Source: a virus
Lineage: Duplodnaviria; Heunggongvirae; Uroviricota; Caudoviricetes
DNA length: 39,953 nt
Virus record (IMG/VR): IMGVR_UViG_2563366923_000006
Reading direction: 5' to 3' (one strand)
This document shows positions 5,451-39,577 of the stretch, in pieces. Under the pieces are notes generated by a model. That model worked only from the letters and a program-made list of their open reading frames with translations, searched no databases and was not told the DNA's origin. Both the position numbers and the translations under genes were made by a program. Position 1 is the first letter of the stretch. Every line of letters starts with the position of its first letter.

Positions 5451-5994
5451 GCATCACTGGAAAATAGAAAAACAGCCTGAGTGGTACGTGAAAGCTGTCA
5501 GAAAAACTATCGCGGCGTTGCCGGGTGGTTACGCTGAAGCGGCTGATTGGCTCGATGTAACAGAAAACGCTTTATTCAACCGCCTTCGTGCAGATGGCGA
5601 TCAGATTTTCCCGCTGGGATGGGCAATGGTTTTACAGCGTGCTGGTGGCACTCACTTCATTGCTGATGCTGTGGCGCAGTCTGCAAATGGCGTATTTGTG
5701 TCTCTTCCTGACATCGAGGATGTGGACAACGCCGATATCAACCAACGCCTGCTGGAGGTCATTGAACAGATCGGCAGTTATTCAAAACAGATTCGTTCAG
5801 CAATTGAAGACGGTGTAGTGGAACCGCATGAGAAGACAGCAATTAACGATGAGCTGTACCTCTCAATTTCGAAGCTGCAGGAGCATGCAGCACTGGTCTA
5901 CAAAATCTTTTGCGTTTCAGAAAGTAGTGACGCCCGCGAGTGTGCAGCTCCGGGCGCCGTGGCGTGTCGTGACTGTGGAGAAACTAACGCATGA
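5443..5994 (+). CDS. CII-like phage regulatory protein (tentative), GTG start
   Basis: Position after cro; AGGAGG 6 nt upstream of GTG; family resemblance is from memory. Confidence 0.5.
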
Positions 5995-6329
5995 ACAGTT
6001 TAACAACACACTACCGTCGCTCGCAACTGATTGCGCTTCCTGTACCGGGTGGAAAAGCGAAGGTGGAGTATTGCTATGCAGTAAATGTACCAGGTGACAG
6101 GGTAATTGTAACCCACAGCTTTGCAGAGTGGGCTGTGGGTGATTTCAACCGGCAAAAGGAGACAGTCCTTTGCGACAAGTTAACCGCTGGTTCAAAGATC
6201 ACTACGGAGTGCCCGTCAGAGTCATTCGTTGGGAGCCGGAAACACAACGGGTTATCTACCTCCGCGAAGGCTATGAGTATGAGTGCTTCAGCCCGCTCGA
6301 ACAGTTTCGTCGTAAATTCAGGGAAATAG
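5991..6329 (+). CDS. Small ORF after cII-like gene; only the first ~60 codons look protein-like (tracked 112-aa ORF is probably over-extended)
   Basis: 3' half translates to S/A-rich junk while an alternate frame looks coding. Confidence 0.3.
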
Positions 6330-6349
6330 AGGTCGGTCATGAGCACTAA
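6170..6349 (+). CDS. Small protein (59 aa) from TTG start in alternate frame; may be the frameshifted 3' part of the preceding ORF
   Basis: AAAGGAG 7 nt upstream of TTG; protein-like translation ending [16 protein letters not shown]. Confidence 0.35.
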
Positions 6350-7280
6350 ATTAACCGGCTATGTATGGGATGGTTGCGCAGCGTCAGGCATGAAATTATC
6401 CAGCGTGGCAATTATGGCCCGCCTGGCTGATTTCAGTAATGACGAAGGTGTGTGCTGGCCATCAATTGAAACCATTGCCCGCCAGATTGGCGCGGGGATG
6501 AGTACCGTCAGAACGGCTATCGCACGGCTGGAAGCAGAAGGCTGGTTAACGCGTAAGGCGCGTCGCCAGGGTAACCGCAATGCGTCGAATGTTTATCAGC
6601 TTAACGTTGCGAAGCTTCAGGCAGCGGCATTTTCTCAACTGTCAGATTCTGACCCGTCAAAATCTGACGCATCAAAATCTGACCCGTCAAAATTTGATGC
6701 GTCGAAATCTGGCAAAAAAGCGGGTTTTCACCCGTCAGAATCTGGCGGGGATCCGTCAGTAAAATCAAAACATGATCCGTCAGATAAAAAACCTTCTCGT
6801 CCGGACGCTTCGCAACCGGACACGCAGACGGATGAACAGGATTTTTTAACTCGCCATCCTGATGCGGTTGTATTCAGCCCTAAAAAGCGCCAGTGGGGAA
6901 CGCAGGATGATTTGACCTGCGCACAGTGGCTCTGGAAAAAAATCATCGCCCTGTACGAGCAGGCTGCCGAATGTGACGGCGAGGTGGTTCGTCCCAAAGA
7001 ACCGAACTGGACAGCCTGGGCAAACGAAATTCGCCTGATGTGTGTGCAGGATGGTCGTACTCACAAACAAATCTGCGAGATGTACAGCCGCGTCAGCCGC
7101 GATCCGTTCTGGTGCCGTAACGTGCTCAGCCCGTCGAAGCTGCGGGAAAAATGGGATGAGCTTTCCCTGCGCTTATCGCCGTCCGTCAGCACATACACAG
7201 AAAAACGTGAAGATCCGTACTTCAAATCCAGTTACGACAACGTGGACTACAGCCAGATCCCGGCAGGATTCAGGGGGTGA
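6339..7280 (+). CDS. Replication initiator, O-like (N-terminal winged-helix HTH, DnaT-like C-terminal region)
   Basis: Position after cII; N-terminal HTH pattern; contains internal iteron-like repeats. Confidence 0.7.
   Translation: MSTKLTGYVWDGCAASGMKLSSVAIMARLADFSNDEGVCWPSIETIARQIGAGMSTVRTAIARLEAEGWLTRKARRQGNRNASNVYQLNVAKLQAAAFSQLSDSDPSKSDASKSDPSKFDASKSGKKAGFHPSESGGDPSVKSKHDPSDKKPSRPDASQPDTQTDEQDFLTRHPDAVVFSPKKRQWGTQDDLTCAQWLWKKIIALYEQAAECDGEVVRPKEPNWTAWANEIRLMCVQDGRTHKQICEMYSRVSRDPFWCRNVLSPSKLREKWDELSLRLSPSVSTYTEKREDPYFKSSYDNVDYSQIPAGFRG
6645..6790. repeat. Iteron-like direct repeats (C(C/G)RTCRAAATCTG units, ~7 copies) inside the O-like gene; putative origin
   Basis: Copies at about 6653, 6669, 6683, 6699, 6730, 6754, 6776; followed by an A-rich stretch. 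Confidence 0.55.
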
Positions 7281-7771
7281 TCATGAGTCTTTTGAATGAA
7301 GTTCAGAAATTCATTAAAGCCCATCCGGGGTGTACTTCCGGAGACATTGCGGATGCTTTTGCAGGTTACTCACGGCAGCGCGTTCTGCAGTCAGCAAGCA
7401 AGTTACGTCAGAGTGGGCGTGTGGCTCACCGTTGTGAAGGAGATACACGCAGACATTTCTCGCGCCTGACTGAGAGAGCGCAGGAGCCGGAACCACAACC
7501 AGTTCGTGAAACCAGACCTGTGCGCAAGTTCTATGTCGGCACTAACGACCCCCGGGTGATTTTGTGCCTGACCCGCCAGGCTGAAGAACTGGAGTCCAGG
7601 GGCTTATACCGTCGTGCTGCAACGGTGTGGATGGCGGCATTCCGTGAAAGCCATTCCCAGCCAGAACGAAACAATTTTCTGGCGCGTCGTGAGCAGTGTT
7701 TACGGAAAAGCAGCAAGCGCGCTGTATCGAGTGATGAGTGGTATCTGTCAGGGAATTACGTGGGGGCGTAA
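7277..7771 (+). CDS. Hypothetical phage protein, possibly regulatory
   Basis: 164-aa ORF translationally coupled to neighbours. Confidence 0.5.
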   Translation: MIMSLLNEVQKFIKAHPGCTSGDIADAFAGYSRQRVLQSASKLRQSGRVAHRCEGDTRRHFSRLTERAQEPEPQPVRETRPVRKFYVGTNDPRVILCLTRQAEELESRGLYRRAATVWMAAFRESHSQPERNNFLARREQCLRKSSKRAVSSDEWYLSGNYVGA

Positions 7772-8097
7772 TGACGACGTTAACTCAATGCCAGCAGCAG
7801 GTGCTGGATATGCTGATTTCTTACCAGAAAGAACGTGGCTTCCCGCCAACCAATCAGGAGGTGGCAACCATGCTGGGATACCGTTCGGTGAATGCAGCGG
7901 TGGAGCATCTTCGAGCACTGGAGAAAAAAGGCGTCATCACGATAAAGCGTGGCGTGGCCCGGGGGATAACGCTTCATACCGCGATGAAGGACGACGACAG
8001 CGAGGCGGTCGGGATTATCCGCGCACTGCTTGCCGGTGAGGAAAACAGCAGGCTGCGTGCAGCCCACTGGTTACATGAGAGGGGCCTGAAAGTATGA
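7771..8097 (+). CDS. LexA N-terminal DNA-binding-domain-like protein without peptidase domain
   Basis: MTTLTQCQQQVLDMLISYQKERGFPPTNQEVATMLGYRSVNAAVEHLRALEKKGVI resembles the LexA winged-helix domain; TAATG coupling. Confidence 0.6.
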   Translation: MTTLTQCQQQVLDMLISYQKERGFPPTNQEVATMLGYRSVNAAVEHLRALEKKGVITIKRGVARGITLHTAMKDDDSEAVGIIRALLAGEENSRLRAAHWLHERGLKV

Positions 8098-38539: not shown

Positions 38540-39577
38540 ATGCACGATAATCATGAAACACAAAAAATTAATCAAACCAGCGTGATGCCTGAAAAAACTG
38601 GTGTTTACTGGAATTCTCGGTTTAGCATTGCTCCTATGCTCGACTGGACGGACAGACATTGCCGCTATTTCTTGCGTCTGCTTTCCCGCAATACGTTGCT
38701 GTATACTGAAATGGTAACTACAGGGGCGATTATTCACGGTAAAGGTGATTACCTGGCGTATAGTGAAGAAGAACATCCGGTAGCGTTGCAACTCGGCGGT
38801 AGCGATCCGGCGGCGCTGGCGCAGTGTGCGAAGCTGGCAGAAGCGCGTGGATATGATGAGATCAACCTGAATGTCGGCTGCCCGTCTGACCGGGTGCAGA
38901 ACGGCATGTTTGGTGCGTGTCTGATGGGTAATGCGCAGCTGGTTGCCGACTGCGTGAAAGCGATGCGCGATGTGGTGTCGATTCCGGTGACGGTGAAAAC
39001 GCGTATTGGCATCGACGACCAGGACAGCTATGAATTTCTCTGCGATTTCATCAACACCGTTTCCGGCAAAGGCGAGTGTGAGATGTTCATCATCCATGCA
39101 CGTAAAGCCTGGCTTTCGGGGTTAAGTCCGAAAGAAAACCGTGAGATCCCGCCGCTCGATTATCCGCGTGTGTATCAACTGAAGCGTGACTTTCCGCATC
39201 TGACAATGTCGATTAACGGTGGTATCAAGTCGCTGGAAGAGGCCAAAGCACACCTGCAACATATGGATGGCGTGATGGTCGGGCGCGAGGCGTATCAGAA
39301 TCCGGGTATTCTGGCGGCGGTAGACCGGGAGATCTTTGGTTCCTCGGATATCGATGCCGATCCGGTGGCGGTAGTGCGCGCCATGTATCCGTACATTGAG
39401 CGTGAACTCAGCCAGGGGACGTATCTCGGTCATATTACCCGGCATATGTTGGGCTTGTTCCAGGGTATTCCTGGCGCGCGGCAGTGGCGGCGTTATTTAA
39501 GTGAAAATGCCCATAAAGCGGGTGCAGACATTAATGTGCTGGAACACGCGCTCAAACTGGTGGCGGATAAGCGTTAA
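38540..39577 (+). CDS. dusA: tRNA-dihydrouridine synthase A; 5' end probably element-derived
   Basis: 345 aa typical DusA; first ~35 codons AT-rich unlike the rest of the gene. Confidence 0.9.

Follow-up and report, generated by a model that had tools for sequence, protein, structure and literature searches.

The virus record IMGVR_UViG_2563366923_000006, a stretch of 39,953 bp that is referred to below as the window, is a lambdoid prophage of the SfII/SfIV type. It carries an O-like replication initiator gene of 942 nt (313 aa) at 6339–7280 on the (+) strand, and inside this gene lie an array of short palindromic repeats (iterons) and an adjoining conserved block, which are considered here as a putative replication origin. 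The gene is recognised from the list of open reading frames (ORFs), from Pfam and PHROGs matches, from the domains of an AlphaFold2 model and from a BLASTP match of its C-terminal part. Its DNA is 99–99.7% identical to genes of the Shigella phages SfIV and SfII and of several Escherichia coli phages, where the names vary between "DNA replication protein O", "primosomal protein" and "replication protein". Some relatives carry the NCBI name "Replication protein 15", and the RefSeq records that were sampled annotate the gene as "helix-turn-helix domain-containing protein", with one that says "phage replication protein O". Upstream are cI, cro-like and CII (CP76) genes, and downstream a PerC-like gene (7277–7771) is followed by LexA-N-like and RusA genes.

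The whole protein matches PHROG 391 ("replication initiation O-like", E = 1e-135), and Pfam places an HTH_36 winged helix at residues 23–70 (E = 4e-11). The AlphaFold2 model, built on a 50-sequence alignment, has a winged-helix domain at residues 1–99 (the N-domain), a stretch at residues 102–162 where the predicted local distance difference test score (pLDDT) is below 50, and a helical C-terminal domain at residues 164–280 (the C-domain). The model of the N-domain resembles dimeric winged-helix DNA binders of the ArsR/MarR type (the Foldseek answer from the PDB being a generic winged-helix one), and a sequence search against solved structures gave weak MarR-type winged-helix matches and no match for the C-domain. 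By BLASTP the C-domain is 31% identical to lambda O (E = 7e-26) and 36% identical to phi80 gp15 (E = 4e-25). Residues 1–69 are left unaligned to lambda O in this search, the alignment beginning at residue 70 and being weak up to the C-domain, and the Pfam scan of the N-domain reported HTH_36, GntR and other helix-turn-helix or winged-helix families and no family of the lambda-O type. The last codons (7242–7277, (+) strand) encode a tail, VDYSQIPAGFRG, that resembles the extreme C-terminus of E. coli DnaT. Residues 102–162, encoded by 6642–6824, are predicted by the model to form a disordered inter-domain linker, and both the repeats and the conserved block downstream of them lie in its coding DNA.

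Iterons, spacer and core in the linker-coding DNA

Five 13-bp units of the sequence GTCARAATCTGRC occupy 6641–6653, 6656–6668, 6671–6683, 6686–6698 and 6701–6713, forming a tandem array (6641–6713) with a period of exactly 15 bp and a spacer of 2 bp. An isolated sixth unit, GTCAGAATCTGGC, is located at 6734–6746, and the start-to-start spacings of the six units in the repeat search are thus 15, 15, 15, 15, and 33; together they take up nucleotides 303–408 of the 942 nucleotides of the gene. When GTCARAATCTGRC was searched with up to two mismatches, 10 matches were found on both strands of the window against 3.4 ± 2.1 expected, nine of them within 6641–6746 and on the six sites, and elsewhere in the 40-kb window there was nothing beyond one chance-level match. 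Tandem Repeats Finder reported 6648–6711 with a period of 15 (4.3 copies, 81% matches) and with a period of 30 (88% matches). An earlier reading of the window from its letters (the original prediction) had proposed about seven copies of such a motif at 15–25 bp spacing inside the O-like gene. The repeats are real, lie in the place indicated and far exceed chance, and the periodicity expected on self-comparison was found both by Tandem Repeats Finder and by the repeat search; the full units number six, however, and the range of spacings is replaced by an exact 15 bp within the array. Each unit is a palindrome of 6 + 1 + 6 bp, a symmetry that the original prediction did not mention. The first unit, GTCAGATTCTGAC, is perfect, and the arms are complementary at 6/6 positions in one unit, 5/6 in three and 4/6 in two. 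The array encodes the repetitive peptide DPSKSDASKSDPSKFDASKS (residues 105–124), exactly as had been claimed, and the peptide residue that varies from unit to unit (P, A, or T) falls on the 2-bp gap separating the palindromes.

The array and the sixth iteron are separated by a 20-bp spacer, AAAAAAGCGGGTTTTCACCC (6714–6733), with an A6 run and a T4 run that are kept in the homologues, and the sixth iteron itself is kept in the type-A homologues examined. A terminator-like hairpin (CGGGTGAAAACCCG and a T-run; 6721–6734, (−) strand) can be drawn in the spacer between iterons 5 and 6; it was rejected as a functional element, since the stem is not conserved in the homologues and only the A-run and the T-run are. 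The promoter/terminator scan reported no promoter-like sites, and an Rfam scan of 5900–7800 returned a lone miRNA model at 30.7 bits against a cut-off of 97 bits, which was judged spurious.

Downstream of the sixth iteron follows an invariant core (6750–6791; family D3 of the repeat search), which consists of two GATCCGTCAG repeats (6750–6759 and 6774–6783), each continued by an A-rich run. It is this different element that had been counted among the copies of the iteron. Each repeat contains a GATC site (6750–6753 and 6774–6777). Within the gene, stability is lowest in the 40-mer that starts at 6758, in the core; the A-rich stretch that had been noticed is present but modest, with about 33% G+C and a rank in the top 3.4% of the 40-mers of the window. 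The core is proposed to be the region of unwinding and loading. It is followed by a conserved GC-rich block, CCTTCTCGTCCGGACGCTTCGCAACCGGAC (6792–6821), which includes the palindrome GTCCGGAC, marks the right edge of the DNA-constrained segment and adjoins a mosaic junction. At codons 151–165, four of the five diverged homologues that were profiled share 9/9 to 10/10 synonymous codons with the window, and the fifth (P0076) shares 4/5. The block that appears functional extends past the end given in the original prediction, to about 6821–6833.

Selection on the DNA was assessed by comparison with eight homologous phage genes, which have 59–84% protein identity over the N-terminal part, and with four more from bacterial genomes. 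Synonymous-codon identity between the window and the eight homologues is 72–95% in the repeat region and 34–57% in the N-domain (Fisher tests, p from 9e-8 to 3e-3, values that are to be read as indicative as the homologues are not phylogenetically independent), and amino-acid identity has the opposite trend, the peptide being less conserved in the repeat region than in the N-domain. In a sliding profile the constrained DNA spans codons ~100–165 (~6636–6833 of the window), which coincide with the linker of pLDDT below 50, and the flanking C-domain has ~40–50% synonymous identity in the same comparisons. Serine is encoded by TCA or TCT at 164 of 184 positions in the linker compared to 70 of 291 elsewhere (13 homologues, p = 3e-47). 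The Asp codon of the core is GAT in 92 cases and GAC in 2, so that GATC is preserved, whereas inside the iterons GAC prevails over GAT (140 versus 35). The E. coli relative P0093 encodes a different peptide (GPDSGRPETEPPETERPESERPEN, RPETE...) from a near-same palindrome, TCCAGAATCTGGA, with the 15-bp period kept; as the peptide has changed and the palindrome has been retained, the peptide follows the DNA motif and not the reverse. Judged by codon choice among the homologues, the DNA of this segment is under selection independent of the peptide that it encodes. This bears out the suspicion of a dual constraint, synonymous sites being far more conserved in the repeats than in the flanking domains.

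Distribution, specificity and modularity of the array

A scan of one genome per species gave 80 loci, 69 of them with the N-domain, from Shigella, Pantoea, Erwinia, Edwardsiella, Providencia, Proteus, Enterobacter, Kluyvera, Yersinia, Rahnella, and other Enterobacterales. Homologues without the repeats, which the original prediction had named as evidence against itself, were not encountered among these 69: in every one of them the strongest repeat period directly behind the N-domain is 15 or 30 bp. A few records with non-enterobacterial labels also carry the module at 45–74% identity (L007, Elizabethkingia phage EKP1; L143, Chryseobacterium sp.; L149, Vagococcus sp.; L167, Martelella alba; L177, a Bacillota metagenome-assembled genome), for which contamination or mislabelled assemblies are a likelier explanation than a real host range. 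More distant HTH_36 initiators, those of Min27, ST64B, Vibrio phage D77, and ZF40, have palindromic repeats of their own, of 21–24 bp, at the same position in the gene.

Across the 69 loci three types of iteron track three types of recognition helix and wing. The helix STVRTAI and the wing GNRNASN occur with the iteron GTCA(A/G)A(A/T)TCTGAC, the helix TTVSAAI and the wing SGGRNLSN with GT(C/T)AACGGTTGAC, and the helix STVITAI and the wing GQRSGTN with TTCAGATTCTGAA. The isolated sixth site changes along with the array, relatives of another type carrying a palindrome of their own type at this place. The GATCC(G/A)TCAG pair and the block that follows it (6750–6821) are constant across the iteron types.

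The number of units in the homologues ranges from one or two up to about ten. Among near-identical viral contigs the gene is 912, 927, 942, 957, or 972 nt long, i.e., it varies in steps of 15 bp; the viral-contig scan gave almost solely such near-identical copies and is informative for copy-number polymorphism alone. The array also behaves as part of a module. The same N-domain and array are joined to at least three unrelated C-domains, and phage mEp460, which has a different N-domain with 23-bp repeats of its own, shares the DNA of the window from 6781 onward only (6781–7280), which places a module junction at the right edge of the array and core. The same junction arrangement is known for lambda-phi80 hybrid O proteins, and Furth and co-workers reportedly found that lambda-phi80 hybrids join in ori.

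A 301-bp segment of this region is present in 2,059 of 5,426 complete E. coli genomes. Matches in a plasmid collection are either prophages carried by large replicons or whole circular phage genomes that had been deposited as plasmids, and do not speak for autonomous plasmid replication. A relic of the array and core (6572–6860 of the window, 99.3% identity) is located in the cryptic prophage CPS-53 of K-12 MG1655 (region L020, 2,470,500–2,476,500), in the unannotated gap between yfdO and yfdP, upstream of yfdO. There yfdO is a C-terminal fragment of the initiator from which the winged-helix N-domain has been deleted, and yfdN is the PerC-like neighbour.

Probable origin function and competing explanations

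The closest precedent is ori-lambda. The lambda record has four 18-bp iterons annotated inside O (nucleotides 349–433 of 900), followed by an A+T-rich region. The origin has been described as four iterons plus a 38-bp sequence of high A+T content (PMC3349717), and lambda, P22 and L have distinct iterons, each inside its own initiator gene (PMC8022706). The arrangement in the window is similar in that the repeats are internally dyad-symmetric and occupy the middle of the initiator gene, and in that the peptide encoded over them is a flexible linker; the stretch that follows them is A-rich and may be easily melted, although it is weaker than that of lambda. In lambda (22.5% G+C), in phi80 (32.5%), and in the window alike, the repeats are closely followed by the least stable 40-mer. 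Positions 6757–6786 of the window (AGTAAAATCAAAACATGATCCGTCAGATAA) align at 23 of 30 positions with lambda 39,141–39,170 (L022 842–871; AGAAAAAAGAAAAGATTATTCGTCAGAGAA), i.e., with the CGTCAGA junction at which the A+T-rich region of ori-lambda meets its right arm, and phi80 has AAAAGATCTTCGTCCGAGAA at the equivalent place. The alignment score was reached by 0 of 500 shuffles, a result to be taken as no more than suggestive, because A-rich composition may inflate the score. The differences from lambda are several: the N-domain belongs to the HTH_36 winged-helix family, 13-bp units recur every 15 bp where lambda has 18-bp units every 20–24 bp, there are six sites, one of them isolated, and an invariant core with GATC sites, the A-rich element is weaker (about 33% versus 22.5% G+C), a P gene is lacking next to the initiator, and a DnaT-like tail is found where lambda O ends ...DWIYGVDL.

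Other origins share part of the design. In phi80, gene 15 contains four palindromes that are annotated as gp15-binding sites and likewise code for a repetitive peptide (FPKTGKSFPKSG...), the C-domains are related as stated above, and the least stable 40-mers have a similar G+C content. The phi80 iterons are TTCCCGAAAACGGGAA at 21-bp spacing, however, the N-domain of gp15 is of the lambda-O type, a P-like gene 14 is present, and gp15 is without the GFRG tail. The gene 18 origins of the Salmonella phages P22 and L are likewise type-specific repeats inside the initiator gene, although with other repeat sequences, and these phages encode a DnaB-type helicase of their own (gene 12). In phage L a repeat of no more than 11 bp recurs in six imprecise copies, so that short units do occur in this class (PMC8022706). 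The iteron origins of plasmids (P1 oriR, F, pSC101, RK2) also combine a Rep protein of the winged-helix type with directly repeated sites and an unwinding element beside them; their iterons are, in contrast, ~17–22 bp long with a period of roughly 22 bp, are located outside rep and are accompanied by DnaA boxes. GATC sites occur in the unwinding elements of P1 oriR and of oriC, in parallel with the two conserved GATC sites of the core.

Taken together, it is very likely that the segment from about 6641 to 6821 is the replication origin of the prophage, situated inside the linker-coding part of its own initiator gene. We infer this function from sequence comparison, the structural model and analogy. 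The intragenic iteron origin of lambda type that the original prediction had in mind is supported by the O-like gene, the linker position, the synonymous constraint, the co-variation of iterons with the recognition helix, and the annotated sites of lambda and phi80. The layout is an unannotated example of the textbook lambda-type design and not a new kind of element. In the proposed mechanism, the initiator would be expressed from the early rightward operon, and dimers of its winged-helix N-domain would bind the palindromes cooperatively. The resulting nucleoprotein complex would destabilise the adjacent, weakly A+T-rich core (6750–6791), and the C-domain and tail would then bring in the host DnaB helicase, possibly through the DnaT-like tail, without a phage P or DnaC-like loader. 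The repeated peptide (DPSKS)n would be a by-product that is tolerated in a disordered linker.

Several points weigh against an origin at this site. Binding of the N-domain to the palindromes is a prediction, and the homologues behind the statistical tests share ancestry. The literature searched contains no origin mapping, cloning or footprinting for this initiator family, and no paper that describes an origin of this family or contains its motif sequences; a paper on Pf-5, considered as a match, concerns an unrelated oriV of plasmid type. No DnaA box with up to one mismatch is found between 5983 and 8773, and the count in the whole window is at chance. The putative unwinding element is only moderately A+T-rich, well short of lambda and close to phi80. 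Variants whose array has collapsed to one or two units occur commonly in nature (P0016, P0020, P0030, P0034, P0063, and P0069), the P0034 variant of Salmonella occurring on 128 contigs; such arrays apparently arose by recombination between units. Finally, classical iterons have a spacing of roughly two helical turns, unlike the 15-bp period, which would set adjacent sites on nearly opposite faces of the helix, about 150 degrees apart. A wrapped complex as in lambda is therefore not assured, and the complex formed here may not be an O-some of the lambda style.

It is conceivable that the repeats bind the initiator for control (autoregulation, titration, handcuffing, or exclusion of related phages) and that initiation takes place elsewhere. 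Plasmid iterons and ITN3-4 of lambda also take part in inhibitory phenomena (PMC3349717), and both the weak A+T-rich element and the persistence of collapsed arrays in many genomes would fit such a role. A control function is nevertheless unlikely: away from the array the window offers a single chance-level copy of the 13-mer, the array adjoins a conserved A-rich core similar to the ori-lambda junction, and the homologous lambda and phi80 genes use the equivalent sites as origin. In view of the attached core and of these two precedents, it is also the less economical explanation compared to an origin.

Mosaicism could account for part of the conservation in another way, if 6750–6821 were maintained as a recombination junction between modules, or were alike through recent exchange, and not by origin function. 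Mosaic boundaries do lie exactly here, as seen in mEp460 and in the unrelated C-domains that follow the same N-domain and array. We regard this as improbable, because it does not predict codon-level invariance across 69 species, with the GAT codon held so as to preserve GATC, next to a C-domain of only ~40–50% synonymous identity in the same comparisons. Use as a junction and function as an origin are in any case compatible and not mutually exclusive.

A slippage-prone peptide repeat in a low-complexity linker, its copies alike by recent expansion or gene conversion and its DNA devoid of function, would explain why the unit number varies in 15-bp steps even among near-identical phages and why the peptide falls in a region of predicted disorder. 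It leaves unexplained the dyad symmetry of every unit, the codon choice shared by homologues that approach synonymous saturation in their N-domains, the retention of the DNA motif in P0093 when the peptide changed, and the co-variation of the repeat with the recognition helix, and can hardly be upheld. Equally implausible is a constraint from RNA or single-strand structure or from an overlapping frame (a 60-aa ORF at 6580–6762 on the (+) strand and a 55-aa ORF at 6601–6768 on the (−) strand), for although the region scores better than shuffled sequences in folding (z = −5.2 for RNA and −4.45 for single-stranded DNA) and no stop interrupts the alternative frames within the array, such a fold is given by any series of palindromic repeats, long-range pairs would shift with each change in copy number, the frames are open simply because the motif is without stops in them, and the constraint runs to 6821, past the ends of the alternative ORFs.

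The DnaT-like tail, the neighbouring genes and the wider meaning

The initiator ends in ...DYSQIPAGFRG, and 8 of 9 residues are identical to the end of E. coli K-12 DnaT (...EPDSQIPPGFRG, i.e., ...SQIPPGFRG), which is encoded by dnaT at L009 2979–3518 on the (−) strand. G310 is found in all of 50 homologues and F311 and R312 in at least 90% of them, and some homologues end in ISEPDTEIPPGFRG, to be compared with VSEPDSQIPPGFRG in DnaT. The same tail is present on the unrelated C-domains of Flotzy, Kp4866-6, and ST64B. On the basis of these comparisons the tail is proposed to be a motif for recruitment of a host factor. No P-like gene, DnaC-like loader gene or helicase gene follows the initiator of the window, and a lambda-P, phi80-gp14 or DnaC-like gene was found within about 1–1.4 kb downstream in none of the 42 loci whose initiator bears the tail. 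A loader gene is present at 8 of the 27 loci without the tail (seven P-like and one DnaC-like), and the seven P-like genes follow initiators that end in ...PEAWENTL or ...AQGWEDVL. The mutual exclusion of tail and adjacent loader over the 69 species loci has a Fisher p of 2.7e-4, obtained from lineages that are not independent. Short of proof, this lends support to helicase recruitment through the tail at an origin without a loader gene.

The recruitment of DnaB-DnaC by DnaT was called unknown in its mechanism in a 2026 paper on the structure of the preprimosome (PMC13377028), reviews say the same, and the preprimosome literature searched does not describe contacts of the last residues of DnaT. 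It is tempting to speculate, although the idea is a tentative one, that the origin is loader-less, the array-bound initiator recruiting the host helicase machinery by means of its DnaT-like tail in place of a phage loader of the P or DnaC type. As part of the same proposal, the tail motif may have been copied from the C-terminus of host DnaT or be convergent with it. If this were true, the tail would be the element for hand-off from DnaT to DnaB-DnaC or to another primosome partner, and the invariant GATC core (6750–6791) would be the loading site, perhaps gated by Dam methylation. The idea of gating comes from the many relatives in which a gene for a Dam-type methylase adjoins that of the initiator, and control of the origin by methylation of the GATC sites of the core is possible. 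A Dam-type or other adenine methylase is encoded just downstream of the initiator in many relatives (L002–L005, L008, L011, L014, L019); the window, like SfIV, is without that gene (PMC3851460).

On the other side of the initiator, a 59-aa DUF4222 ORF (6170–6349, (+) strand; Pfam E = 1.8e-18) overlaps the start codon of the gene and is regularly found upstream of initiators of this kind. A further overlap of the 59-aa ORF, in a different frame, is with a 112-aa ORF (5991–6329, (+) strand; PHROG 1170) that is annotated in phage records. In KpF5, P7641, and 733R5 the DUF4222 frame is conserved at 83–85% compared to 52% for the 112-aa frame, and the small ORF therefore looks like the gene under selection, rather than the 112-aa ORF.

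An origin at 6641–6821 would give the correct annotation for a very common prophage replicon and would explain the odd repetitive peptide of its initiator. With at least three specificities, the type-specific pairs of initiator and iteron form a compact set for the study of winged-helix initiators on closely packed sites. The DnaT-like tail, in turn, could make the question of how DnaT recruits DnaB-DnaC directly testable.

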